Below the pieces are notes generated by a model, which was not told the DNA's origin, did no database searches, and saw only the letters and a program-made list of their open reading frames with translations. The position numbers and the translations under genes were made by a program. From positions 98,684-162,683 of IMG/VR virus record IMGVR_UViG_3300020577_006271: a stretch of DNA of 64,000 nt; one strand, given 5' to 3'. Below, piece after piece: positions 2,403 through 38,142 of the stretch. Position 1 is the first letter of the stretch. Every line of letters starts with the position of its first letter. The stretch is from a virus. Its lineage: Duplodnaviria; Caudoviricetes.

Positions 2403-2459
2403 ATTTATTGTTTAAATGCAACATGGATCAATTAATATGGAGATCCGGTTGTCGGTATA

Positions 2460-2823
2460 TTAGCTGTCTATTTTAAATTGTAATTTATTTCCTGATCTTC
2501 TAATATCTATCAACTTACTATACGTCCATTGCCATTTATTAATTTTCTTCTTAAATATGTCCATAAATGCAGACATCATATTAGTCTTTGAATCTTCATC
2601 ATAATCAATCATATTTAGGTTGTCGATAAGCTTATTAATTTCAACATTCAAAATTCATATCATATTTACTTCCACGCAATTCTTTGTAACGGGAAATTAA
2701 ATAATTATCATCAGCATCACTAAAATCCGGATTTCTCTGAGAGTCCGAATATCCGACTTCGTTGATTTTCTTAATTTTTCGATCAACAATGGTTTCTACG
2801 ATTTGCCTTAATTTTGTGCTCAT
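2460..2823 (-). pseudogene. Frameshifted MSTKLRQI-leader protein (putative internal head protein)
   Basis: Two overlapping short ORFs (2641-2823 and 2460-2651); N-terminus nearly identical to 5282-5737. Confidence 0.55.
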
Positions 2824-2912
2824 TTTGTTTTTTTTTTGTGACCTAATTTATACCACAAATATAAATGATTTTATTTAATAAATAGTTTAATTTTTGAAAA
2901 ATTAACTTTTCT

Positions 2913-4751
2913 TTAAATATTTATCGTTTTTCCTTTGATATCTCTATCAGGAAATTTAATTTCGAAAATTGATGGATCTAACGACGGATAAACAACTCCG
3001 TCGCGTGTTGCTGTTTTGATATCATAAATAACATCAGAATATCCTTTAGATATATCGTTTAAATTATAGATATCAATTTTCGAAACAGTTTGCACACCAT
3101 CTATTTTGTCTAATTCTGTATATAATTTCGATAGTATTATAGGTTCATTGATTTGCAGTGTATCTTGCGACAATAATTCTTTTAGTCGCGCTATACATCT
3201 AAGAATTATTTCATTTGAATTATACGATGGACGGCAAATAATCTCAAAATCAATTCCAATATTAATAATATACGGATCCATAATCTCAATTGCATCAGTT
3301 AACAATCTATAATTAGAAAGGTATTTTGCAATGTTGTTTTTCAATGCTGGATTGGCATAATTAAAGGTTCCATCATCAGCAGACGATAATATATATAAAT
3401 TTAATATATTCGTGTTCTTAAAATTATTTTCAATATAACATTTAGCTATTGAACCATATTTAGAAGGCATTGAATATATACGAAGAATATAATCCGCCTT
3501 AGTTACCGCCCGATTTTGTGCAGCAAATGTAGCTATAGCTTCATTCTTGATTAAATCTAAATTTTTATAATTTTGACCACCAAATGCTGGGTATTCATTG
3601 TTTATTTTTATACCCCTATCTATAGAATTTAATAATTCATCCACCGTTGCTGGGTTTAACCCACTAATCATGGAATATATTTCCATATTGTCGATAATCG
3701 TCAATGAATCGGCAGGAATATTATCCGTAATTCCGTCAGAAACCAAATATTTTACAGTCAATGTAGTATTTGATGGAGCTGATCCGTAGGTTTTCGTGTT
3801 AATAAAATTAACTGGATCCAACATCGTCTCCGAAAAACGTCTATAGTAATCAATACCCAGTCCAACATTAAAGGGATTAGGTACTATTTCTTCATCTGAC
3901 TCCAACCCAAGACCTGATCCAAATTGTATCTCTAATTTATTGTCTTTTCTGACTCTAGTTATATACCGTCGATCAGTTTTAAGATAGGTTAACAAATATG
4001 GCACTGAATCTTTATATTGATGTAGTGTAGATGAAGCATATTCGTCATTAAGTTTATCAGATGGAACTAAATCTTGGGACAAATAATCAACTTCATACCA
4101 TGATTCATTATCAGAATCAATGACTGATATAATTCTAGATACATTAATATCATCTAAGACTATTTTATCGTACCGTTTCGGAGATTCGAAATCAAAAGTT
4201 GCTGTTCGTATTTCCCCAGCTATAGCTCTGACTTTTTTTGATAATACAAAATAAGTTATTTCTCCGGTATTAGATATTTCATACACGGATATTTCTGTTG
4301 GATCAGCTGTATTGTTAACCGAAAAATTTAATGAATCTATTGTATAAAATTTTCTACCGTCTTTAGTTGACAATTGCATTCCAGATTTAATATGAAAGGC
4401 ATAATCCATATTTGGTTTATATGTGTTATCTTCGAATATAGCAGGAACTAATTGTAAGACGGTTACAATACATTGTGCGGGTACAACATTTGTTGGTTTA
4501 TATCCATAATTCTGTGCAAGATTAAATATATTCTTACGTTCACTTGCTAAATTTATAAAAGATTCTTGTAACTGGTGGTCACCATATATGGACAAAACAT
4601 CCCCCACGAATGCAGCCATTTCGACAAACATTAAGGCAGGAGAAGACTCGTTAAAATCCTTATAAGTATCTGGAAAATAATTCTTCGCATAATTTATTAA
4701 TGCTTCCCTGAATTGTCCAAAATCTTTATTTAAATATTTGACCTTACTCAT
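2913..4751 (-). CDS. Baseplate wedge subunit (T4 gp6-like / baseplate J family)
   Basis: N-terminal YLNKDF...LINYAKNYFPDTYKDFNESSP...EMAAFVGDVLS and AQNRAVTKADY motifs; adjacent to gp25-like gene. Confidence 0.85.
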   Translation of the reverse strand: MSKVKYLNKDFGQFREALINYAKNYFPDTYKDFNESSPALMFVEMAAFVGDVLSIYGDHQLQESFINLASERKNIFNLAQNYGYKPTNVVPAQCIVTVLQLVPAIFEDNTYKPNMDYAFHIKSGMQLSTKDGRKFYTIDSLNFSVNNTADPTEISVYEISNTGEITYFVLSKKVRAIAGEIRTATFDFESPKRYDKIVLDDINVSRIISVIDSDNESWYEVDYLSQDLVPSDKLNDEYASSTLHQYKDSVPYLLTYLKTDRRYITRVRKDNKLEIQFGSGLGLESDEEIVPNPFNVGLGIDYYRRFSETMLDPVNFINTKTYGSAPSNTTLTVKYLVSDGITDNIPADSLTIIDNMEIYSMISGLNPATVDELLNSIDRGIKINNEYPAFGGQNYKNLDLIKNEAIATFAAQNRAVTKADYILRIYSMPSKYGSIAKCYIENNFKNTNILNLYILSSADDGTFNYANPALKNNIAKYLSNYRLLTDAIEIMDPYIINIGIDFEIICRPSYNSNEIILRCIARLKELLSQDTLQINEPIILSKLYTELDKIDGVQTVSKIDIYNLNDISKGYSDVIYDIKTATRDGVVYPSLDPSIFEIKFPDRDIKGKTINI

Positions 4752-5184
4752 TTATAAATCCCGGCTTGTCATTGTTATTAAAGATTGTCAATATTTTATT
4801 CGCCCCGTATTCCGATGTTGAATATTCAATTCGAATGCCAATTGAATTAACCAAATCGTTAACAACATTAGATATTGAAATTTCGTATATTGTTATATAT
4901 GGTAACCATTGTGACGCTTGGGTTCTTATGACTGTATCTATCTCTGAGATTAGTTCAGTTGTGTTATTTTCGAATAAATAGTATTGTAATCCAATACCGA
5001 ACTCAGGCTGCATATAACGTTCGCCTTGTTTAGTTAATAACAAATTGACGAAATTAGAGATAGATTGTTCTTCTGTCGTGAATGACATATTGAAGACACC
5101 TCGACCATTTTTAGAATTCATAGGCAATTTTATTCCTATTAAACCGCGGGTTTTATCTTCTGGATATGATTTGAAATTTACCAT
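4744..5184 (-). CDS. Baseplate gp25/GPW-like protein
   Basis: NLLLTKQGERYMQPEFG...LFE and W-L-P-Y-I motifs. Confidence 0.85.
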   Translation of the reverse strand: MVNFKSYPEDKTRGLIGIKLPMNSKNGRGVFNMSFTTEEQSISNFVNLLLTKQGERYMQPEFGIGLQYYLFENNTTELISEIDTVIRTQASQWLPYITIYEISISNVVNDLVNSIGIRIEYSTSEYGANKILTIFNNNDKPGFINE

Positions 5185-5209
5185 AATATAATTAGTAAAT
5201 ACCAATCAT

Positions 5210-5237
5210 AAAAAAAGAGTAACTTTTGATTACTCTT
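5210..5237 (-). terminator. Intrinsic terminator
   Basis: AAGAGTAA/TTACTCTT stem with T-run on the minus strand. Confidence 0.75.
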
Positions 5238-5281
5238 ATATTTGTTTAATTTTGAATGAATATGGTTCTTGGCGCCTTGAA

Positions 5282-5737
5282 TTAAACCATCCAAGATCTT
5301 GGCAGTGCAATATATTCGCCTAACTTCCAAGATCTTATGAATAGTTCATCTTTTCCTAACTCTTTAATTTTCTCAATATCAAATTGTTTAATTAATTCAG
5401 CTAATTCTACATCAAGATCAAATATTTTTGTAAATTCCTGATGACTGCGTATTCTGGCAATTGCATCATCAACGGGTCTATTGAGATTTTCAAAGTTGCT
5501 TGCTATATTTTCGAGATTACTGTCTATGTGTCTATCAAGAGCTTTCCACATTTTGCTGAAAGTTTCATTAGACTTATTTATCCCAGCTATAGCTAATTTC
5601 GTGATATTACTTCTTTGTTTTGCGCCACGATATTGACTTTTACCGATTGCTGATTGATATGTATCCGGACTTAATTCTGTTAGTCTAAGTTTTCTATCAA
5701 CTATTGTTTCTATGATTTGTCTTAATTTTGTACTCAT
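5282..5737 (-). CDS. MSTKLRQI-leader protein (putative capsid-packaged internal protein)
   Basis: Own promoter and terminator; leader MSTKLRQIIETIVDRKLRLTE shared with 2641-2823. Confidence 0.55.
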   Translation of the reverse strand: MSTKLRQIIETIVDRKLRLTELSPDTYQSAIGKSQYRGAKQRSNITKLAIAGINKSNETFSKMWKALDRHIDSNLENIASNFENLNRPVDDAIARIRSHQEFTKIFDLDVELAELIKQFDIEKIKELGKDELFIRSWKLGEYIALPRSWMV

Positions 5738-5828
5738 CTTGTTTTTTTTTGGTTATACAATTAATATCACAAATGTAAATGATTTGTATTAATAATTAGT
5801 TAGTTCTTGAAAATTTAACATTTTTTTA

Positions 5829-6287
5829 TTATCTAACCGGCCTACCCTGCATCTTTTTGACTACATCACTGTAATCTCGAGTAACCGCTTCCATTATTGA
5901 ATCAGGTAATTCATCTACTTGATCGAGTATAGATTCGCCCATACCAATAGTATGCCCTTCGGATAGCGCTATATCATTTTTGATATTAATTTCATAAATA
6001 GTGATGTATGGCAACCATATTGCAGCTTGAAGTCTAATGACAGTATCAATTTCTGATAATAATTCTACAGTATTCTGTTCAAACAAATACCAAGGGAGAC
6101 CCACGCCGAATTCAGGCTGCATGAATCTTTCACCTTGTTTAGTCATCAATAAATTTACAAAGTTAGAAACCGATTGCTCTTCTGTATTGTATGACATATT
6201 GAAAAATTCACGTGATGTTTTGGAGTTCATTGGCAATTTAATACCAATTGTACCACCGAACCTATCTGCTGGATATGATTTATACAT
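5829..6287 (-). CDS. Chimeric second gp25-like copy with a foreign C-terminus
   Basis: First ~115 aa are paralogous to 4744-5184; the end (AVTRDYSDVVKKM...) resembles the end of 6313-6657 (AFTKDYSNLIKSM...). Confidence 0.65.
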   Translation of the reverse strand: MYKSYPADRFGGTIGIKLPMNSKTSREFFNMSYNTEEQSVSNFVNLLMTKQGERFMQPEFGVGLPWYLFEQNTVELLSEIDTVIRLQAAIWLPYITIYEINIKNDIALSEGHTIGMGESILDQVDELPDSIMEAVTRDYSDVVKKMQGRPVR

Positions 6288-6312
6288 TATATTAAATAGT
6301 TTAGGCCTTTAA

Positions 6313-6657
6313 CTATTTAACTGGAATCTTTGCCATGCTTTTAATTAAGTTAGAATAATCCTTAGTAAATGCATTATTTAAAGATTTCACAATCTTTTGT
6401 TCTGCTGGCGTAGCATCTTCATTAATTGTAATTAGTTCATTTTCTGCAGCCTGATGCTTATTAAGTTGGTCATGATCAACTATAGAATTAAGCCACTCTA
6501 ATGTATTTTCTTTTTTAATTGGGATTGGTGTTGGACTGACTGATTTTATGGGTGGCGTATTTACTTTTCTAATCTCTTTAATAAGAAATGGTATATAACG
6601 TTTAAATTCCGCTTGCACCACTGTTTGTATCATTGATTTCAAATCTTCAGGTGTCAT
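6313..6657 (-). CDS. Hypothetical protein
   Basis: 114 aa ORF within the baseplate operon. Confidence 0.6.
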   Translation of the reverse strand: MTPEDLKSMIQTVVQAEFKRYIPFLIKEIRKVNTPPIKSVSPTPIPIKKENTLEWLNSIVDHDQLNKHQAAENELITINEDATPAEQKIVKSLNNAFTKDYSNLIKSMAKIPVK

Positions 6658-17421: not shown

Positions 17422-18582
17422 ATGATAAATGTAGGAATAATTGGATTAGGCAACTGCGCAAGTTCACTAATCCAAGGCATAGAATATTATACAATGTATC
17501 CAGAAAAACTTTCCGGATTAATGATGAAAGATATTGGTGGGTATTTACCAAAGGATATTAATGTTGTAGCGGCATTTGATATTGATAGTCGTAAGATTGG
17601 AAAACCAATCAAAGATGCAATTTGGGAGAAGCCTAATTGTACTATACAACTTTACAAAGATGTTAAAAACATGACTGTAATTGAAAAAGCTCCGGTTTTA
17701 GATGGTTATGCTAATATTATGGATGCATATCCGGAGTCAGATAGATTCTTAGTAACAGAAGAACTAAGAAATAATACAGATTTGGGCCGTAGTATAGCAT
17801 TGGATACAGATTATATCTTGGGTTTAAAAACAAGAATTATACATGTATTAAAAGAAAATAATGTAACCATATTAATTAACTATTTACCGGTTGGGTCACA
17901 AATAGCAACTGAATGGTGGGCCGAAATCTGCTTAGAAACGGGTATATCTTTTTTAAACTGTATTCCGGTTTTTATAGCATCTAATCCAGTTTGGGATCAA
18001 AAATTCAAAGACAAAAACATTCCAATTATTGGAGATGATATGAAAAGTGAATTCGGTGCATCGATAGTATCACAAATTTTGCAAGAATTAGCTTTTGCGC
18101 GTGGACATCACGTTAAGTGTCATATTCAACGAAATATTGGAGGTAATACAGATTTTTTAAATATGGAAGATAAATCCAGATTAAAATCTAAAAAAATATC
18201 AAAGGAAAATGTTATAAGATCCCAAAATGACATTCGTGGTATTTCAACCGAAAACACTTTTTTACATGCCGGACCTTCGGAATATATTTCGTATTTTAAA
18301 GATAATAAAGTTGCTAATTTTCACATAGAATTGGAAGGATTTATGGGTAGCCCAGTAATTTTAGATGCTCAATTATCAGTTCAAGATTCTCCAAATTCTG
18401 CTGGAGTAGTAATCGATGCTATTAGATATTTATCCGTGGCTCGAGAAATGGGTTTAAAGGGCTCATTAAAAGGCGCCAGCGCTTGGACGCAAAAAACCCC
18501 TCCAATTCAAATGACAAGCGAGCAAGCGCAAAAAGAATGCCAAACATTAGCTAATAGAGATAAAAGCTTTTTTACAAAATGA
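17422..18582 (+). CDS. ino1: myo-inositol-1-phosphate synthase
   Basis: GLGNCASSLIQG, YLPVGS, GDDMKS, GGNTDFLNM, RLKSKKISK and DSPNSAG. Confidence 0.95.
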   Translation: MINVGIIGLGNCASSLIQGIEYYTMYPEKLSGLMMKDIGGYLPKDINVVAAFDIDSRKIGKPIKDAIWEKPNCTIQLYKDVKNMTVIEKAPVLDGYANIMDAYPESDRFLVTEELRNNTDLGRSIALDTDYILGLKTRIIHVLKENNVTILINYLPVGSQIATEWWAEICLETGISFLNCIPVFIASNPVWDQKFKDKNIPIIGDDMKSEFGASIVSQILQELAFARGHHVKCHIQRNIGGNTDFLNMEDKSRLKSKKISKENVIRSQNDIRGISTENTFLHAGPSEYISYFKDNKVANFHIELEGFMGSPVILDAQLSVQDSPNSAGVVIDAIRYLSVAREMGLKGSLKGASAWTQKTPPIQMTSEQAQKECQTLANRDKSFFTK

Positions 18583-19202
18583 TCAAGATAGATTCGAATA
18601 TAAACATGAGAGAATATGGATCGCATTATTTTAATGGATTTTTAGATTTTCTTATGTTTGTTAATAAAAATATAAGAACTTGTAACACCATTATCGAAAT
18701 AGGATCATTTAAAGGAGAATATAGTTCATTAATCTTGAAGCATATTCATGGTAATCCAATATTATATTGTGTTGATCCATGGAATGACATGCCGGATAAT
18801 TCGGATATTTTACAAGGCATAAATTTTTCAAATATAGAAAAGATTTTTGACGAGACATTAATTAGTTTTAACAATTTTAAGAAAATAAAATCCACATCAG
18901 ACGAATTTATTCAAAGTAATACAATTAATTCGGTTGATTTGGTTTATATAGATGGATTACACACTTATGATCAAGTTAAAAGGGATATAGAAAACTATTT
19001 ACCATTAATTAAATCCGGTGGAATTTTAGCAGGTCACGATTATCATATACCAATACCGCATGAAGAATATCCCTTTTATTATGACATCGATAAACAACAA
19101 AAAATACGACATCAAGTTGGATTAGCAGTCGATGAACTTTTATTAAAAGATTATAAAATTTATACATTCGAAGATACATCATGGGCAATAATAAAAAAAT
19201 AA
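18579..19202 (+). CDS. Class I SAM-dependent methyltransferase (Methyltransf_24-like)
   Basis: IIEIGSFKG, CVDPW, DLVYIDGLHTY and GGILAGHDY. Confidence 0.9.
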   Translation: MIKIDSNINMREYGSHYFNGFLDFLMFVNKNIRTCNTIIEIGSFKGEYSSLILKHIHGNPILYCVDPWNDMPDNSDILQGINFSNIEKIFDETLISFNNFKKIKSTSDEFIQSNTINSVDLVYIDGLHTYDQVKRDIENYLPLIKSGGILAGHDYHIPIPHEEYPFYYDIDKQQKIRHQVGLAVDELLLKDYKIYTFEDTSWAIIKK

Positions 19203-20008
19203 TCATTTTATATAGTGGCGGATTAGATTCATTTATATTATATCATTGGACTAAACAAAAATATCCAAGTTACGAAATTAAATGTATTTATTATGATTAT
19301 GGAAATCCTGTTTGCCAAACTGAAATTTCTAAATTACCTGAATTTGTAATAGTTAAAAATATAGAGTGGTTCGACAATTCAGCAGAAAAATTAGTTGGCA
19401 AAAAAACAGAAAATCATAAAGGAAACATTTACATTCCAGGTAGAAATATGGTCTTCGCTGTGTTGGCAGCTGCACAAGAATTACCAGATTATATTTTTAT
19501 GGGTGGACTGTATGAAGAAGCACACCAGGCAGCAACAGACAAGAATGTTGAATTCATACATAAATTTAATGAATTAGTGAATTATGTATTATCTCCGTTT
19601 AAAGATAAAATTTTATTAGTATTCCCATTTGTCGACGAATCATACACTAAATCAATGGTAATAGATTGGGCGTTAACTAATGGGATAAGCCCTGATATAT
19701 TAGGAAAATTATACAGCTGCTTTAATTATTCGGAAAATGGATTACCTTGTGGAGAATGCCATTCTTGTATGCGTAGTTTTTCTTTCTTTTACAAAAAAGG
19801 AATCCCAATTAAATTTAATCGACACCCATTTTTTGAATCGAATTTTGGTATTAATTATTTACAACGATCAATCCAAATGTTAGAAGCATCACATTATGAC
19901 CGAATTTTACTTCAAGATTTAGATTATGGTGCAATTAAATCATTTTTAATTGATTACAATATTGATCAATTATTAGTTGATAGAATTGATAAATTTTTAG
20001 AAATATGA
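19181..20008 (+). CDS. queC: 7-cyano-7-deazaguanine synthase QueC-like
   Basis: PP-loop YSGGLDS, YIPGRN and Zn site C-x9-CGECHSC. Confidence 0.85.
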   Translation: MGNNKKIIILYSGGLDSFILYHWTKQKYPSYEIKCIYYDYGNPVCQTEISKLPEFVIVKNIEWFDNSAEKLVGKKTENHKGNIYIPGRNMVFAVLAAAQELPDYIFMGGLYEEAHQAATDKNVEFIHKFNELVNYVLSPFKDKILLVFPFVDESYTKSMVIDWALTNGISPDILGKLYSCFNYSENGLPCGECHSCMRSFSFFYKKGIPIKFNRHPFFESNFGINYLQRSIQMLEASHYDRILLQDLDYGAIKSFLIDYNIDQLLVDRIDKFLEI

Positions 20009-20346
20009 ATATTGGCTTTGATTTCGATGGAACAATAACTAAAAATCCATGGTTATTTAAACAATTAATTGACATGTTTAGATCAGTTAATGGTGTCAAT
20101 ACCGTATATATTATTTCTGGAACATCCGACAACGACAGATATAAATTATTAAATGAATTAAAATCTTTTAATATTACGGTAAATCCAGAAAATATTATTA
20201 CTAAGCCAGAATCGGGAAATATTTCCGATGTAACAATGTGGAAATATAATTTAGTAGACGAATTAAAAATTCGATTATATATCGAAAATCGAGAAGAAAC
20301 AGCAATAAAACTATCAGAATTATGCACAATTTTTAAAATTATTTAA
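20005..20346 (+). CDS. HAD-superfamily phosphatase (cap-less)
   Basis: IGFDFDGTI motif I; IISG motif II. Confidence 0.75.
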   Translation: MNIGFDFDGTITKNPWLFKQLIDMFRSVNGVNTVYIISGTSDNDRYKLLNELKSFNITVNPENIITKPESGNISDVTMWKYNLVDELKIRLYIENREETAIKLSELCTIFKII

Positions 20347-21551
20347 TGAAAAATTTTACATTTATCCCATCCATTTCGGCTGGATACTTATATAACGGAA
20401 TTGTTACTGATAAAACATTCTTGAATGGGATGCCTTACGATTATTATAATTACGAAGGAAAATTTAATTACCCATATTTTCTTATAACTGCAGGAAATTT
20501 TTACAAAAAAGATGTTTACGAAAAATCGAAATTCTTCAAGAATGAGAACGTTGAAATATTTGGCGACTCGGGTGGATATCAAATAGCAACTGGGACATTA
20601 AAATGGAATAAGGATATACGGCATACAATAATGACTTGGCTGGAAAGAAATTCAACCGTTGCCGCAAATCTTGATATACCACCAAGATCAAAATTATTTT
20701 CAACGACGGACGCAAGAGAAATATCGTATGACAATTTCAAGTATTTTCATGAAAATCAGTCGGGTAAAACTAAATTTTTGAATGTGTTACAAGGTAAAGA
20801 TTTAATTTCATATTCATCCTGGTATAATATGGTTAAAGAATTTACTGACTTTGAAGGATGGTGCATTGGCAACGTATCTACTATATCAAACATTATTACG
20901 TCAATATATGTGTTACTGAAGAACAAAGAGCATCTAAGATCTAAGGTAATACATTTTCTTGGTGCATCTAGTCCGGATTCATTTGTAATTATGTCACATT
21001 TTCAAAATGCGTTAAACAATGTTGGATTAGACGTACAAATATTTTCCGATTCGTCAAGTCCTAACTCAGCAAGATTTGGATATTACTATACTGACATTGA
21101 TTATAAGACTTTAGCCTGGAGGAATTTTCATATTCCATACATACGAGAAGAAAATATCGAAAATTTAGACAAATATAAATCAGAAATTTATAAATCAGAT
21201 TCAAATTCGATATTGCCATTGTACACAGATTTCGACAAAGAAATATTTATAAATTTATTCAACCACCAAGATTTACTTGATTATAATTCTAGATTTTGTA
21301 GTGCCTTAATATTAAGAAATATTCATGTCTATAAAGCACAAGTGGAAATTATCAATGAATTTGTCAAAGCTCCCGAATATTATAGAAAACATATTTTTCC
21401 AGAGAGTATTGCTAAATTAGGGTCAATGATAAACGAAATGGTAGAATCAACATCATCACAAATGATTGACTCAATATATAATAAATATTCTCCAATACTC
21501 AACAAATATAAAAGCTCAACCACGGCTGGAACCAATCAACAACTGTTTTAA
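20346..21551 (+). CDS. TGT-fold transglycosylase (DpdA-like, putative DNA 7-deazaguanine insertase)
   Basis: DSGGYQ, LDIPP, VLQG, GWCIG, IHFLG and SDSSS TGT motifs; immediately upstream of DNA polymerase. Confidence 0.75.
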   Translation: MKNFTFIPSISAGYLYNGIVTDKTFLNGMPYDYYNYEGKFNYPYFLITAGNFYKKDVYEKSKFFKNENVEIFGDSGGYQIATGTLKWNKDIRHTIMTWLERNSTVAANLDIPPRSKLFSTTDAREISYDNFKYFHENQSGKTKFLNVLQGKDLISYSSWYNMVKEFTDFEGWCIGNVSTISNIITSIYVLLKNKEHLRSKVIHFLGASSPDSFVIMSHFQNALNNVGLDVQIFSDSSSPNSARFGYYYTDIDYKTLAWRNFHIPYIREENIENLDKYKSEIYKSDSNSILPLYTDFDKEIFINLFNHQDLLDYNSRFCSALILRNIHVYKAQVEIINEFVKAPEYYRKHIFPESIAKLGSMINEMVESTSSQMIDSIYNKYSPILNKYKSSTTAGTNQQLF

Positions 21552-21552
21552 T

Positions 21553-23388
21553 ATGTATAGCAGAATCCATTACGATCGTAATAAAAACCTAATTCATTTA
21601 TGGGATGATGTAAACGGGTATTCGAATTTTGAATATCAGCCATATGCATATATCAGCGATGTTAACGGTGATAAAAAGACAATGTCTGGCATTCCAGTAA
21701 AACGCACCACTCGGTGGAATTCTACCGCTGAAGAGTTAGGTATTATATTTGAGGCAGACGTTCAACCAGAGATGCGTACATTAATTGACTTATATGGAAA
21801 TTCAGATGAAATTTCAAAACGATTAATCCTTTACGCTGACATTGAGGTTAGAAAAAATGAAAAATATTCAACGGTTGCTGAAGCTGCGAATGAAATCAAT
21901 GCAATAACTTATATCACTAATGAAACTGATATTTATACAGTTTTACTCTTGGATGAAAATAGTGCACCGAGAAACTATAGAACAACGGTACAAATTCCAA
22001 AAACAGAAATATTTGTAGAATGCAATATTAAAGTTTTTAATTCCGAAACAACGCTTTTAAAAGCATTTTTAAAGGATTTAAGAGAAATTGATCCTGTAAT
22101 ATTTACTGGCTGGAATACGGATCAATATGACATTCCGTATTTGCACAACCGTATTGAAAAGGTTTTAGGTTATGAATATAAATTATTACTAAGTCCAATA
22201 TCAATAGTTAGAACCAACGAATATGCAGGGAAAACTGAAATTAAAATAGCTGGGTTATATAATTTAGATTATTTAGATTTATACAAGAAATTCACTTATT
22301 CAGAAGAACCATCATATAAATTAGATTCGATTGCTATTAAAGAATTGGGAATTGGTAAGGTTGAATATGAAGGATCGCTGGATGATTTATGGCGGCAAAA
22401 TCCAGATAAATTTATTAGTTATGCAGTGATTGATGTCTGGTTAATAAAACAACTTGACAAAAAATTAGATTTCATCGACATTGCTTGTGGTATTTGCCAT
22501 AAAGGGCATGTACCATACTCGGACATTCAATTTACATCTAAATACCTTGAAGGTGCGTTGTTAACACATTTGCATAGAAATAATTTAGTTGCAATTTCAA
22601 CAGAGAAAACTAAACATCATGATACTGCTGAAGGTGCGTATGTCAAAGAACCAATTCCAGGAATTTATCGTTGGATTTATGATTTAGACTTGACGTCATT
22701 ATACCCTTGGAATATTATAAACTTAAATATTTCCCCAGAAACTAAATTTGGATTTATTGTAGACTGGAATCAGGAGAAGTTTTTAAAGGATATAGACCGT
22801 TCATGGAAATTGCTTAAAAAGGTAGATACATCAACGTATAAATTTTTCAAAGATCTTGATGAAATTAATGAAAATGAATTCAATTTTGCCACAACAATAG
22901 AATTCAAACAATTTATAATTGATAATAATTTATCGATTTCATCATCTGGTATTTTATATTCATTGGATACCCCTGGATTGATTCCAACTGTTTTGAAAAT
23001 TTGGTTTGCGGAACGGACAGAATATTCAAATCTTATGAAGGAATATGGACTATCTGGAGATTCAGAAACGGAACGATATTATGATAAAAAACAATTAGTT
23101 ACAAAAATTCTGTTAAATTCGCTATATGGTGTATTGTTGTTACCAACATTTCGTTTCTATGATCGTCAAAATGGGGAAAGCGTGACAACTGTTGGACAGT
23201 CTGTGATAAAATGGGCAACCGCAATAGCAGATAAGTTTTATCACAAAGAATTAGCAGAATTTAATTGTATTTATCGACTTGAAATGGAAAACGGTACGGT
23301 TAAAAGTTTACATGGATTCGATTTGATAAATACAAATTCTGGGAAAAAATATGTTTTCCAATTAACTCCTGATGATGAATTAATATAA
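21553..23388 (+). CDS. Family B DNA polymerase, N-terminal half (exonuclease plus motifs A and B)
   Basis: DIE, GWN...YD, DLDLTSLYP and KILLNSLYG; lacks motif C; likely start MYSRIH at 21553. Confidence 0.9.
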   Translation: MYSRIHYDRNKNLIHLWDDVNGYSNFEYQPYAYISDVNGDKKTMSGIPVKRTTRWNSTAEELGIIFEADVQPEMRTLIDLYGNSDEISKRLILYADIEVRKNEKYSTVAEAANEINAITYITNETDIYTVLLLDENSAPRNYRTTVQIPKTEIFVECNIKVFNSETTLLKAFLKDLREIDPVIFTGWNTDQYDIPYLHNRIEKVLGYEYKLLLSPISIVRTNEYAGKTEIKIAGLYNLDYLDLYKKFTYSEEPSYKLDSIAIKELGIGKVEYEGSLDDLWRQNPDKFISYAVIDVWLIKQLDKKLDFIDIACGICHKGHVPYSDIQFTSKYLEGALLTHLHRNNLVAISTEKTKHHDTAEGAYVKEPIPGIYRWIYDLDLTSLYPWNIINLNISPETKFGFIVDWNQEKFLKDIDRSWKLLKKVDTSTYKFFKDLDEINENEFNFATTIEFKQFIIDNNLSISSSGILYSLDTPGLIPTVLKIWFAERTEYSNLMKEYGLSGDSETERYYDKKQLVTKILLNSLYGVLLLPTFRFYDRQNGESVTTVGQSVIKWATAIADKFYHKELAEFNCIYRLEMENGTVKSLHGFDLINTNSGKKYVFQLTPDDELI

Positions 23389-23390
23389 AT

Positions 23391-23690
23391 ATGAAAGTTG
23401 AAAAAACCAAAGAAAGCGTAATATTAGAAATTCTTTTTGACGCTGGAGTCAAATTTGACAAAAATGATTTTGATCTATATAAAACCATATTCGATAATGG
23501 TTATTATTTTAAAACTTTATTAATGGAACAAACGTTATCAAAATTATTAAGATTCAAGGAAGAAATTCTAGAACAAAGAAAAATGTTAACCGAACCAAGA
23601 CCAGGAATATACTTAAAATATAATAACAGATTAGGTTGGAAAATTGTAATATATTGGTATAATAATAACATAGAAACAATTAATACATGA
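23391..23690 (+). CDS. Hypothetical protein between the polymerase halves
   Basis: 99 aa ORF tightly coupled to both halves; no recognisable nuclease motif. Confidence 0.55.
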   Translation: MKVEKTKESVILEILFDAGVKFDKNDFDLYKTIFDNGYYFKTLLMEQTLSKLLRFKEEILEQRKMLTEPRPGIYLKYNNRLGWKIVIYWYNNNIETINT

Positions 23691-24634
23691 AAATAAAAAG
23701 TATCAAGTCGTTGACAATCAATACGGAACATATTATATCTTTTTCTATATATACTGATACTGACAGTATATTCTATCCATTGGAACCATTAATGATAGCT
23801 AGATATGGGAAACAAAATTTCACTGACGAAGAGTTTATAGAAAAAGGGTTACCCTTAATTAATGAAATCCAAAATTATATTAATAAATCATATGATGTAT
23901 ATGCTAAACGATATCATAATGTATCTACCCATGGGTGGAATTTGAAACAAGAATTGTTGGCAAGAAGAGGATTCTGGTCGGGAAAGGTAGAAAAACCAAA
24001 AAAAGGGCAACTTCCAAATTCTATATCTACTGTTACTGGTGTTAAAAAACGCTATGCGCAGTGGATTGTAAATAAAAAGGGGGTTCCTAAAAATTACATG
24101 GATGTCAAGGGCCTTGAATCAGTTAGATCCAATTATCCTAAAATTTTTAGATCTAAACTTGCCCAGATATTTGAAAAATTATTACATGACTGCACTGAAG
24201 ACGAAATGAATAATTTTCTTAGGTCATTTAAAAAACAAATTAAAGAAATTGATATGTGGGATATTATGATCCCAACTTCAGTTAATTCAGTCGAAGATTA
24301 TTCAACCGGGGTTTTTGGTTCATATGGAAAAAAGACTCCAGCTCATGTTAAGGCAGCATTAAATTATAATTCTGTCATTGATTTACTAAAATTGGAAGTA
24401 CCTAAATTAACCGATGGTGATAAAATATTATGGTGTTATTTAACAAATAATCCATATTATTTTGATGCTATAGCAATTTCAAGAGAATCAAATCCTCCAG
24501 AATTAATAAATTTTGTCGAAAAACACATTGATCGAAATGCTGTCTTTGAAAATTTATTCTTAAATAAAGTTCAGGGTTATTATTCGTCAATTGGATGGGG
24601 AAAAATTCAAATTAATTCAAACTTTTTCTTCTAA
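23687..24634 (+). CDS. Family B DNA polymerase, C-terminal half (motif C plus thumb)
   Basis: YTDTDS, KKRYA, KGLESVRS and PAHVKAA. Confidence 0.9.
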   Translation: MKIKSIKSLTINTEHIISFSIYTDTDSIFYPLEPLMIARYGKQNFTDEEFIEKGLPLINEIQNYINKSYDVYAKRYHNVSTHGWNLKQELLARRGFWSGKVEKPKKGQLPNSISTVTGVKKRYAQWIVNKKGVPKNYMDVKGLESVRSNYPKIFRSKLAQIFEKLLHDCTEDEMNNFLRSFKKQIKEIDMWDIMIPTSVNSVEDYSTGVFGSYGKKTPAHVKAALNYNSVIDLLKLEVPKLTDGDKILWCYLTNNPYYFDAIAISRESNPPELINFVEKHIDRNAVFENLFLNKVQGYYSSIGWGKIQINSNFFF

Positions 24635-26493: not shown

Positions 26494-26925
26494 ATGACAT
26501 ATACAATTTCAAAAACATTTTTGGGCTATCCATTCGCCCATCGCCAGCCTAAACATGACGGACACTGTTCTTTAATTCATGGACATAACTGGGACTTCAC
26601 CATTGAGTTATCGGCTCCCGAAGGACAACTCGACGAAAATGATTTCGTTTATGATTTCGGCAAATTTGCTTGGTTGAAAACTTGGTTCACGGATATGTTT
26701 GACCATACATGTGTAATTAATGCGACTGACCCTCTAATTGAAAAATTTACTACAATGAATTCTGAAGGTCTAATTAATTTGAAAATTGTTCCGTCTGCAT
26801 CAGCTGAAGGATTAGCAAAACTGATTTATGACCATATATCTAAGCAAGATTTAGGTACAGATGTTACATTAGTATCGGTTACAGTTCATGAGGATTATAA
26901 AAACCAAGCTAAATATTCAATTTAA
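26494..26925 (+). CDS. queD: 6-carboxytetrahydropterin synthase
   Basis: AHRQ...HCSLIHGH, DFG, FDH and SAE motifs. Confidence 0.9.
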   Translation: MTYTISKTFLGYPFAHRQPKHDGHCSLIHGHNWDFTIELSAPEGQLDENDFVYDFGKFAWLKTWFTDMFDHTCVINATDPLIEKFTTMNSEGLINLKIVPSASAEGLAKLIYDHISKQDLGTDVTLVSVTVHEDYKNQAKYSI

Positions 26926-35762: not shown

Positions 35763-36242
35763 ATGAATTGGGAAAAATATAAATCATTAGCAGCAAGAAC
35801 TATGCTCGATCGTGGAAAAGAACATAATTTTCTACACATGAACGCTGGTATAGGCACTGAACTTTTTGAACTTATGGATATATTTAAACGTAATTATGCA
35901 TACGATAAAGATGTTGATCTAATACATGTGTCTGAAGAAATCGGTGATACGTTTTGGTATGAAGCAAACCGCGAAAGATTATTTCCGGAATTAACATTTG
36001 ATGTTAAAGAATATCAATTCAATTCTATAGAAGATATTATGTACAGTATTATTGATTTTAATATAATGGAAGGTTCGGCAACTCCATTATTAATGGCCAT
36101 GATAGATTATTTTGAATTAGATTTAGATCTTATTTTAACTAAGAATATAAAAAAATTAAAGGGTCGATTTCCTGATAAATTTAATACAGTCGACGCATTA
36201 AACAGAAATTTAGATAACGAACGCAAAATATTAGAATCATAA
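35763..36242 (+). CDS. MazG-like nucleotide pyrophosphohydrolase
   Basis: E..EL.D..K...EEIGD.FWY and N..KL..RFP. Confidence 0.8.
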   Translation: MNWEKYKSLAARTMLDRGKEHNFLHMNAGIGTELFELMDIFKRNYAYDKDVDLIHVSEEIGDTFWYEANRERLFPELTFDVKEYQFNSIEDIMYSIIDFNIMEGSATPLLMAMIDYFELDLDLILTKNIKKLKGRFPDKFNTVDALNRNLDNERKILES

Positions 36243-36829
36243 TGGAATTTACCAACTCATATTCGAATTTAGTACAAACCATATTATTCTCCGGTTATGA
36301 TTACCCAGATCCAAACCGGTCAGGAATATTTAGAAAGGAAGTATTCCCAGCGGTTATAGTACATGACATGCAAGGATCCTTTCCATTGTTGGCATCCAAA
36401 AAAATATTCACTAGGGGAGTATTTTATGAATTGAAATGGATGTTATTAGGTAGAACCGATTTAAATTTCTTAAGAGATCATGGAATAAAAAATATCTGGG
36501 ACAAGGATGCCTATAACCACGCGTTAAGAAATAAATTCCATGGTACTATGGAAGAATTTCTGTCGGATGTTGATAATGGAAATGTATTTTCTTTGGGGCC
36601 GATTTACGGAAAACAGATGCGGAATTGGAACGGTACCGACCAATTGTTAACCGTAGTAAATAAATTGTTAGATCCAAAACAACGATATTCAAGTGAGCTT
36701 ATTATAAGTTCCTGGAACGTTTCAGATTTAAATATTATTGATTACCGATCTGACGATGTATTATATCAAGCATATTTAAATGAAATTAAATGGAATGTAC
36801 CTGAAGACAACGATATCGTGATTAAATAA
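36242..36829 (+). CDS. thyA: Thymidylate synthase, N-terminal half
   Basis: FPLL..KK, ELKWML.G, IW, LGPIYGKQ.R and SSWN. Confidence 0.9.
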   Translation: MEFTNSYSNLVQTILFSGYDYPDPNRSGIFRKEVFPAVIVHDMQGSFPLLASKKIFTRGVFYELKWMLLGRTDLNFLRDHGIKNIWDKDAYNHALRNKFHGTMEEFLSDVDNGNVFSLGPIYGKQMRNWNGTDQLLTVVNKLLDPKQRYSSELIISSWNVSDLNIIDYRSDDVLYQAYLNEIKWNVPEDNDIVIK

Positions 36830-36887: not shown

Positions 36888-37592
36888 ATGAATTATGAAA
36901 AAATCTACAATCAAATTATTGAACGAGCAAAGACGCGAGCATTGCAAGGTTATGGCGAAAATCATCATATTATACCAAAATGTTTAAATGGCACTAATCA
37001 TCCGGAAAATATAGCAAGATTAACCGCCAGGGAACATTTTTTAGCACATTGGCTTCTACATGAAATGTATCCAAATAATTCCGATTTACGATATGCGTTT
37101 TGGTGTATGTTTAGGAATTCAATCGGCCAGGAACGATATGTGCCATCTTCAAGAGTGTATGAATACGCTAAGATTAAGATGATTGAAGTTTGGCATAAAA
37201 TAAAGAAAACTCCGGCTGAAATAGAATCACTTAAAAAAAGATTTACTGGCACAAAATGGTATCACAATTTAGATGGTTTTAATTTTAGGGTGTTTGATGA
37301 TGATACGCGTATATTAACTGAAGGCTGGATTCCTGGTAGATTTGATGGCAAAACTATATCGAAACATGCTAATAATATAAAAGAACTTCAATATGCTGAA
37401 GGGAAACGCAGACCTGAAACGTCTAATAAAAAATGTTCAATTGATGGTAAACTGTTTGATTCGGCAAGTGAAGCCGCAAGGGAACTCGGTATAAACCAAT
37501 ATACTTTAAGATGGATTTTACAAGGCAGATTTTCGCCAAAACAAAAAGAAAAATACAAAAATTGGTATTACATAATTAATAAAAATGTTTAA
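36888..37592 (+). CDS. Free-standing HNH homing endonuclease (MobE-like)
   Basis: MNYEKIY...ENHHIIP.C..G....N...LTAREHFLAHWLL; C-terminal NUMOD1-like HTH. Confidence 0.9.
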   Translation: MNYEKIYNQIIERAKTRALQGYGENHHIIPKCLNGTNHPENIARLTAREHFLAHWLLHEMYPNNSDLRYAFWCMFRNSIGQERYVPSSRVYEYAKIKMIEVWHKIKKTPAEIESLKKRFTGTKWYHNLDGFNFRVFDDDTRILTEGWIPGRFDGKTISKHANNIKELQYAEGKRRPETSNKKCSIDGKLFDSASEAARELGINQYTLRWILQGRFSPKQKEKYKNWYYIINKNV

Positions 37593-38142
37593 CATGAATG
37601 AAATATTATCTAAAGAAGAATTCTTAGAAAAGTTAAAAACCGACAATAAATTTAATGCTAAATATGGAAGAAAGCATAAATATAAGGTAGCTCTTCATCC
37701 TTGTCATCATGAGATACAATTTAATTGCCGCCCAGGACAAAACGGAGAACATTATTTAGATCTACAATTTTCAATGCGCTCATCTGACGTTATATTGGGT
37801 CTTCCTTGGAATTTTGCATTTTATGGAATGATGCTTGAAATAATTGCTAATATTACAAATCTAATACCAGGTAAATTAACTTATTTTGGTAAGAAGGTGC
37901 ACTTGTATGACAACCAGTTTGATGCTGCCAAAGAACTCATTAACCGGACCAGCCATCGTCGCGATTTAATGTGTGAACCAAAAGCTGAAGTATATATAGA
38001 TGCAGAGCTTAAATGTGAATCATATGATTCTGCGAGTTTAACACAATTAATTAATAGTTTAAATTTAGATACTATCAAATTTTCAAATTATAAAAATTTA
38101 GGCGACCTAGAAAACCAGCCGACAATGCTAGCATATAGTTAA
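37585..38142 (+). CDS. thyA: Thymidylate synthase, C-terminal catalytic half
   Basis: ALHPCH, RSSD..LGLPWN and HLYDNQ. Confidence 0.9.
   Translation: MFNMNEILSKEEFLEKLKTDNKFNAKYGRKHKYKVALHPCHHEIQFNCRPGQNGEHYLDLQFSMRSSDVILGLPWNFAFYGMMLEIIANITNLIPGKLTYFGKKVHLYDNQFDAAKELINRTSHRRDLMCEPKAEVYIDAELKCESYDSASLTQLINSLNLDTIKFSNYKNLGDLENQPTMLAYS

Follow-up and report, generated by a model that had tools for sequence, protein, structure and literature searches.

Phage genes broken by mobile elements have been described in several forms. In the fractured genes reported by Dassa et al. (2009; PMC2677866), the two halves carry split inteins, and a free-standing homing endonuclease gene of the Vsr-like or GIY-YIG type lies between them; the same study noted an intein-less fracture of an SbcD-like gene with unexplained inserts of 25 and 9 residues. 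In phage Aeh1, ribonucleotide reductase (RNR) is split by mobE into NrdA-a and NrdA-b, whose activity depends on their element-derived tails (Crona et al., 2011; PMC3045599). These authors speculated, without a database match, that the tails might be degenerate split-intein remnants. DNA polymerase gp43 of T4-related Aeromonas phages is also known as two pieces, gp43A and gp43B (Petrov et al., as cited in PMC2677866 and PMC3045599). Here, we describe a T4-like phage family B DNA polymerase (PolB) gene that is split just before motif C and that carries at both new ends peptides related to the inner ends of a split intein. The gene lies in a 64,000-nt stretch (the window) of the 162.7-kb viral record IMGVR_UViG_3300020577_006271, a metagenomic contig estimated to be 88% complete.

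The polymerase is encoded on the forward strand by two co-oriented open reading frames (ORFs) with a 99-amino-acid (aa) ORF between them (21466-24634). The N-half (21553-23388) contains the exonuclease domain, motif A, the fingers with motif B, and a C-terminal tail. Its frame is open from 21466, the likely start is the ATG at 21553, which gives a protein of 611 aa, and the stop codon is at 23386-23388. It matches Pfam DNA_pol_B_exo1 (1.8e-21), DNA_pol_B (2.6e-21), and phrog_262 (3.7e-117), and an identical 611-aa protein was found in a public collection. The C-half (23687-24634, 315 aa), which contains motif C, the rest of the palm, and the thumb, matches phrog_262 (5.5e-45, profile positions 572-840) and DNA_pol_B (2.6e-7). 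Motif C, read from the sequence and aligned with that of 80 relatives, is intact with its catalytic Asp pair and lies wholly in the C-half (23747-23767). The N-half, the middle ORF (ORF2, 23391-23690), and the C-half occupy three different frames. Since only 2 nt separate the N-half stop from the ORF2 start, and the ORF2 stop overlaps the C-half start in an ATGA, translation of the three ORFs is probably coupled.

In all 80 of 80 related IMG/VR loci, the polymerase gene is contiguous across the break point. Compared to these relatives, the window polymerase has 40 added residues at the end of the N-half (23266-23385) and ~15-20 at the start of the C-half (23687-23746), just before motif C. The 40-residue tail, which has no counterpart in the 80 relatives, is predicted to form four β-strands. 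The extension of the C-half is basic and consists of ~15 non-native residues followed by the native strand that leads into motif C. The phrog_262 match of the N-half runs to profile position 564 (residue 594 of the 640-aa ORF), and that of the C-half begins at position 572 (residue 18). As only ~8 profile positions lie between the two matches, almost no enzyme sequence has been lost. No second PolB is encoded elsewhere in the 162.7-kb record. Thus, the ORFs, the Pfam and PHROG matches, and the contiguous relatives bear out the split before motif C that was proposed in a preliminary description of this DNA.

The preliminary description also proposed that both new ends carry fragments derived from an intein. 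When we scanned the tail, ORF2, and the extension with Pfam and NCBIfam, there was no intein match at E ≤ 10, while controls from Aeromonas phage Aes123 did match. A profile search with Vsr-like endonucleases identified 16 viral loci, all of them with a PolB gene that a complete split intein interrupts at motif C and with the endonuclease between the halves, as in phage Aes123; a single-sequence search of viral contigs with the endonuclease of one close relative (L087, below) gave no match. A hidden Markov model (HMM) built from 13 PolB-type split N-inteins that flank Vsr endonucleases scored the tail at 0.5-1.4 bits, which is the null level. PolB-type intein models matched the extension weakly, at 4.5-5.2 bits (null maximum, 6.0; hhalign P, 0.16). 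Among PDB sequences, the tail profile matched only IF1 (E, 1.4). The conclusion drawn from these PolB-type, general, and PDB searches, that the tail is not intein-like, was overturned by later searches specific to its own family.

In an exhaustive HMMER search, the tail profile matched only the C-termini of N-fragments of split genes. These were two more PolBs (P0021 and P0022), two fragments of DnaE (Pol III alpha), a P-loop protein, and an RNR. Split genes that carry the tail in other phages thus include those for PolB, DnaE, and RNR. The P0021 PolB is ~50% identical to that of the window (49.6%) and has the same split and the same tail. A widened profile of nine tails, used against a 5.8-billion-sequence database, reached proteins with Pfam Hint and Intein_splicing domains (PF01079/PF14890) at E values of 4.5e-6 to 6.6e-4. 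Each of these proteins has an ordinary split N-intein, with Cys1 and T-x-x-H in block B, whose final ~40 residues correspond to the tail. Scored with an HMM of six bona fide N-inteins, the window tail reached 22.0 bits and the tails of the close relatives L087 and L088 reached 27.9 and 30.2 bits, while the best of 2000 shuffled sequences reached 11.8 (0/2000 at the level of the tail). Over its whole length, the window tail can be aligned with the final 38-40 residues of the N-inteins. Another reading, prompted by the same three residues in relatives, was that the tail opens with a degenerate duplicate of the native strand of motif C. We set this aside, since the tail aligns with N-inteins along its full length and since the three residues differ in L087 and P0007, with Lys in place of the Cys.

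The extension could be placed by comparison with one locus, L112. L112 encodes the N-part of a DEAD-box helicase followed by a ~100-aa N-intein, then a nuclease-like ORF, and then a 35-aa C-intein that ends in Asn before a +1 Cys. The N-intein is canonical, with Cys1 and a T-x-x-H block B, and the C-intein opens with nearly the same residues as the window extension. The extension start, M-K-I-K-x-I, is invariant in seven variants, and the same start is found on the C-inteins of L112, L107, and L110. Together, these comparisons support homology of the tail to the region from block B to the C-terminus of one split N-intein family, and the extension resembles the first strand of the C-intein of that family. 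The window's own genome contains neither a second copy of this tail and extension module nor an intein.

A structural comparison was possible because the DnaE gene of another locus, L108, contains the module twice, once split and once unsplit and in frame, with an extension-like strand following directly on the tail. AlphaFold2 modeled the unsplit copy (63 residues) with a mean predicted local distance difference test (pLDDT) of 81.5 and with five strands, the fifth of which is the equivalent of the extension. The window tail alone was modeled with a pLDDT of 89.6 and formed the first four strands. In Foldseek, the best eight matches to the unsplit L108 model were inteins (template modeling score, 0.65-0.71; root-mean-square deviation [rmsd], 1.3-2.5 Å). 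In an independent scan of 48,161 representative chains, the top 25 matches were all members of the HINT superfamily (Z, 7.5-3.2; rmsd, 2.0-3.2 over 54-60 residues). The matched ranges (residues 48-115 of Npu DnaE, 40-104 of gp41-1, and 75-429 of PI-PfuI) cross the site where these inteins are split or carry an endonuclease, and the match covers the central half of the HINT domain only. Thus, the tail plus extension, as modeled on the unsplit L108 homolog, is predicted to have a HINT-like fold. The N-intein HMM, the L112 C-intein, and this fold all support the proposed intein origin of the peptides at both ends.

The 99-aa ORF between the halves, which the preliminary description had listed as unknown, proved to have a recognizable end. 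Although we found no homolog of the whole ORF, its last 19 residues (codons 23631-23687) are identical at 14 of 19 positions to the C-terminus of the Vsr-like endonuclease of L087 (E, 1e-8), and the DNA alignment agrees. Since ORF2 agrees with the 3′ end of the Vsr-like genes of relatives in both its C-terminal residues and their DNA, we conclude that it is a decayed Vsr-type homing endonuclease gene that has lost the catalytic core. Its sole remaining role may be translational coupling to the C-half. As the C-terminus of ORF2 is an endonuclease remnant, we no longer considered ORF2 to be the middle piece that a three-piece intein would need.

We compared the break with that in phages from public assemblies (L085-L089 and L106). 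Their polymerase halves cluster with those of the window at 90% protein identity, and their intervening DNA differs. L087 has a 243-aa ORF and a 280-aa Vsr-like gene, L088 and L089 have a 229-aa ORF and a Vsr-like gene of 224 or 204 aa, L085 and L086 have a GIY-YIG endonuclease gene and a 60-aa membrane ORF, and L106 has the last ~22 codons of an endonuclease and nothing more. Thus, intact Vsr-like or GIY-YIG genes are present in close relatives, while the window retains a remnant. The split recurs in at least six independent samples, and the final ~20 endonuclease codons are retained in every variant. The break in the polymerase gene is a hot spot of endonuclease cassettes. The 229-243-aa ORF of the L087 (5730-6461) and L088 (5847-6536) cassettes belongs to no known family and has a Walker-A-like G-K-T-T stretch.

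The DNA that flanks the break differs between the window and L087 in a characteristic way. Their N-halves have no differences in the first ~1500 nt and 70 in the last ~330 nt, and the C-halves show the mirror pattern, with the differences at the 5′ end. These tracts look like co-conversion tracts around a mobile cassette. The polymerase codons within the exchanged tracts have ratios of nonsynonymous to synonymous substitution (dN/dS) of 0.03-0.09. The split enzyme is therefore under purifying selection.

The explanation that we favor, and judge probable, is that a cassette has fractured PolB and left non-splicing intein ends that dock the two halves. A free-standing homing endonuclease cassette would have entered the polymerase gene just upstream of motif C, bringing with it the inner ends of a split intein, namely ~40 residues from the end of the N-intein and ~15 from the start of the C-intein. 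The endonuclease would then have decayed to the 99-codon ORF in the window phage. In the resulting enzyme, the acidic four-strand tail would probably be completed by the basic first strand of the C-half, and the small sheet so formed would dock the halves and set the motif C hairpin beside motif A.

Several observations are consistent with such a non-covalent clasp, through which the tail and extension would bind each other and aid assembly or activity of the rebuilt palm. The retained pieces are those that meet across the split site of the HINT domain. They have opposite charges, with an isoelectric point (pI) of 4.1 for the end of the tail and of 10.3 over the first eight residues of the extension; the halves of split inteins zip together through two long antiparallel strands with the same charge pattern (Dassa et al., 2009; PMC2677866). 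The tail is exactly 40 residues in all four PolB tail variants (window/P0005, L088, L087, and P0007) as well as in P0021 and P0022, and the window and P0021 tails are 57.5% identical, compared to 49.6% for the polymerase. Moreover, the tail survives loss of the endonuclease in L106 and L108. Together with the predicted strand pairing in the unsplit homolog and the precedent of Aeh1 NrdA, this conservation and charge complementarity make a clasp function plausible for a module whose split-intein origin is supported by both sequence and structure.

Other observations weigh against this explanation. The dN/dS of the tail, at 0.26-0.55 over 40 codons, is far above that of the adjacent polymerase and, for the L087 pair, not significantly below 1. 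Recent horizontal transfer of the cassette, and not constraint, could account for the high identity of the tails of distant PolBs, and the middle of the extension is hypervariable. The six inteins of the HMM were themselves retrieved with the tail profile, with E values that already account for database size. The structural evidence comes from the L108 homolog, which is 31% identical to the window tail, rather than from the window's own pair, and the L108 alignment has no rows that cover the fifth strand. Finally, the Aeh1 NrdA tails are dispensable for heterodimer formation and are needed only for higher-order assembly (PMC3045599), so a clasp may be the wrong role. Prediction of a complex between the tail and extension peptides, run without controls, gave a score of 0.13 (mark, 0.32) and counts neither for nor against binding.

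Some of these points suit a different explanation, which we consider unlikely although it is the strongest competitor. The tail and extension could be passive hitch-hikers, the flanks that any endonuclease cassette needs so as to provide a stop codon, ribosome-binding region, and start codon. The halves would then assemble through the native palm interface alone and do no more than tolerate the peptides. Both peptides lie within the conversion tracts that move with the cassette, selection on the tail is relaxed relative to the polymerase, and the center of the extension varies freely. Retention of the last ~20 endonuclease codons in every variant would also fit a cis-acting role of this DNA in expression. 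However, a mere stop codon would not require a 40-residue folded unit such as the confidently modeled tail, and the tails on PolB, DnaE, and RNR, at 29-57% identity, agree exactly in length and share one strand pattern. Its conservation is at least equal to that of PolB itself, and it is kept where the endonuclease is gone.

We considered it very improbable that the gene is simply broken, with the phage relying on another polymerase or the contig representing a dead variant. The record is an incomplete metagenomic contig, and two relatives, L087 and L088, have frame-breaking insertions inside motif C. However, motif C is intact in the window, whose record has no other PolB, and both halves are under strong purifying selection in the exchanged tracts. 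In addition, the split recurs across independent samples and is found with the same tail on a PolB that is only 50% identical.

The insertions in L087 (7351-7440) and L088 (7233-7330), both of which carry intact Vsr-like endonucleases, lie in the motif C codons between D-T and D-S. They are 5 nt long in L087 and 10 nt long in L088, and both bring in a stop codon in frame. The L087 sequence has TGA right after the Thr codon ACG, and a second ACG 5 nt on restores the frame, an arrangement with the pattern of a short ribosomal hop; a GTGA stop/start overlap is also present. The L088 insertion has neither a matched landing codon nor a nearby start. The same truncated 261-aa gene call is found on two further contigs. 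These insertions could confer self-immunity to the endonuclease (compare T4 mobA/gene 60), or they could be dead alleles or assembly errors.

Could the pieces still splice? A splicing domain needs ~125 or more residues. The window retains ~55-60 intein residues, which are the inner ends only, and lacks roughly 50-60 residues from the N-terminal part of the intein. It has no block A, F, or G and no terminal Asn, and the extension continues directly, without a junction Asn, as the native strand of motif C. In the alignment with bona fide members, the block B columns for Thr and His hold His and Asp. Neither NCBIfam intein_Cterm nor Pfam Intein_splicing matched at E ≤ 10, while the Aes123 control matched at 2.3e-8. 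The preliminary description was thus correct that the remnant is catalytically dead; its statement that no splicing residue is in place needs amending, as a Cys does occupy the first residue of the window tail. This Cys, the size of the pieces (40 + 99 + 20 residues, close to that of a mini-intein), and the existence of atypical split inteins would favor trans-splicing by an unusually small or three-piece intein, with ORF2 possibly supplying the middle. However, the Cys is Lys in the near-identical relatives L087 and P0007, and ORF2 is an endonuclease remnant that is missing or replaced in relatives. We regard trans-splicing as more improbable still than a broken gene. Since so little of the domain remains, with blocks A, F, and G and the terminal Asn missing, block B altered, and the first Cys unconserved, protein splicing is excluded, and the enzyme therefore works as two polypeptides.

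Least probable of all, to the point of being negligible, is removal of the interruption as a group I intron or its bypass by the ribosome, since, although introns are known in T4-like polymerase genes and translational bypass in T4 gene 60, there was no intron family among Rfam matches at E ≤ 10 over 22800-24200, an ORF that is tightly coupled through its start and stop occupies the gap, the halves each have a start or stop of their own, and there is no G at a usable 3′ splice position beside motif C.

Our searches placed the tail and extension module in three contexts: directly in PolB and DnaE genes with no other intein block, as an unsplit insert in DnaE, and inside otherwise complete inteins, after block A (L107 and L110). 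In L107 (RNR, 2405-6458) and L110 (P-loop protein, 305-1250), inteins are broken just after block A by a unit of tail, endonuclease (where present), and extension. The C-parts carry blocks B, F, and G, such that the module creates an atypical split site, and the L107 RNR also has a second, contiguous intein. In L108 (4722-4877), the unsplit tail plus extension lies inside a conserved segment of DnaE (P0025, residues ~408-459). This DnaE also ends in a split copy, which is followed 45 nt on by a C-part that begins with the extension, and the endonuclease gene is absent at both sites. The PolB relative with 50% identity has a Methyltransf_24-like ORF (1.5e-5; L109, 2320-2865) between its halves rather than an endonuclease.

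This distribution suggests that the endonuclease, with its two intein stubs, moves as a unit into new sites. We tentatively raise the possibility that the whole arrangement, consisting of an N-intein end, an endonuclease gene, and a C-intein start, is a portable element that brings its own splicing-independent docking module and has entered PolB, DnaE (at two sites), class I RNR, and complete inteins. If so, fracture of an essential gene would be tolerated at once, through a natural non-covalent substitute for protein splicing, and the module could persist as an unsplit 50-residue in-frame insert after endonuclease loss.

A second gene in the window, encoding thymidylate synthase, is also split beside its active site. 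The N-half (36242-36829) is followed by a free-standing HNH endonuclease (36888-37592) and the C-half (37585-38142). Both new ends have extra residues, and the gene is not matched by the tail profile. Directly upstream of the polymerase (18579-21551) are a methyltransferase, QueC, a small HAD-like ORF, and a TGT/DpdA-like ORF, with QueD on the downstream side (26494-26925); in relatives, the upstream gene is inositol-1-phosphate synthase (Pfam). The genes around the window polymerase look like a 7-deazaguanine DNA-modification set with unusual additions.

Endonuclease-fractured essential genes, odd terminal tails, and the suggestion that such tails are degenerate inteins were all known. What is new is that a tail is linked to an intein by sequence and structure; to our knowledge, no such tail had been linked in either way. 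The link provides a concrete evolutionary route from a split intein to a non-splicing heterodimerization module, and the same module recurs on several replication enzymes. For phage biology, it describes a polymerase active site assembled from two chains at motif C. The natural pair is small (40 + ~15 residues) and is a candidate orthogonal, scar-tolerant protein docking tag.

The closest described systems each share part of this arrangement. The 16 IMG/VR loci and Aes123 with split inteins in PolB have the same co-oriented, tightly packed order of N-part, endonuclease ORF, and C-part, in the same host gene and the same motif C region, with endonucleases of the same family as in close relatives of the window phage, and with split-intein ends to which the break peptides are homologous. 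In the window, however, only the inner ~55-60 intein residues remain and there is no splicing, the break is ~7 codons upstream of the D-T-D|S insertion site of those inteins, and the remnant comes from a different intein family, given its 0.5-1.4 bits on the PolB-type HMM. Canonical split inteins, such as that of the L112 DEAD-box helicase and, structurally, gp41-1 and Npu DnaE, correspond to the tail in their last 38-40 N-intein residues and, in L112, to the extension in the start of the C-intein. The other features of these inteins, namely Cys1 in block A, T-x-x-H in block B, blocks F and G, a terminal Asn, and a +1 Cys, are all absent from the window.

Split gp43, as it is cited in PMC2677866 and PMC3045599, is likewise a T4-like PolB that works in the form of two subunits, and in some cases an endonuclease gene separates the cistrons. 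The gp43A/B1 break of Aes123 precedes the fingers and motif B, whereas that of the window is just before motif C, and intein-derived tails are not among the features of gp43A/gp43B given in those citations. Aeh1 NrdA is also an essential replication enzyme split by a homing endonuclease insertion, with unique, oppositely charged, unprocessed tails at the new ends. The window polymerase has such tails, which are absent from the 80 contiguous relatives and have pI values of 4.1 and 10.3. The two cases differ in that the Aeh1 tails act in assembly of a dimer of heterodimers, while the role of the window peptides is a predicted one, and in that the origin of the Aeh1 tails is speculative, while the intein homology of the window tail is measurable. 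The unexplained inserts of the SbcD-like fracture may be the same phenomenon as the window peptides, and intein-derived docking ends could explain inserts at this and other fracture points.

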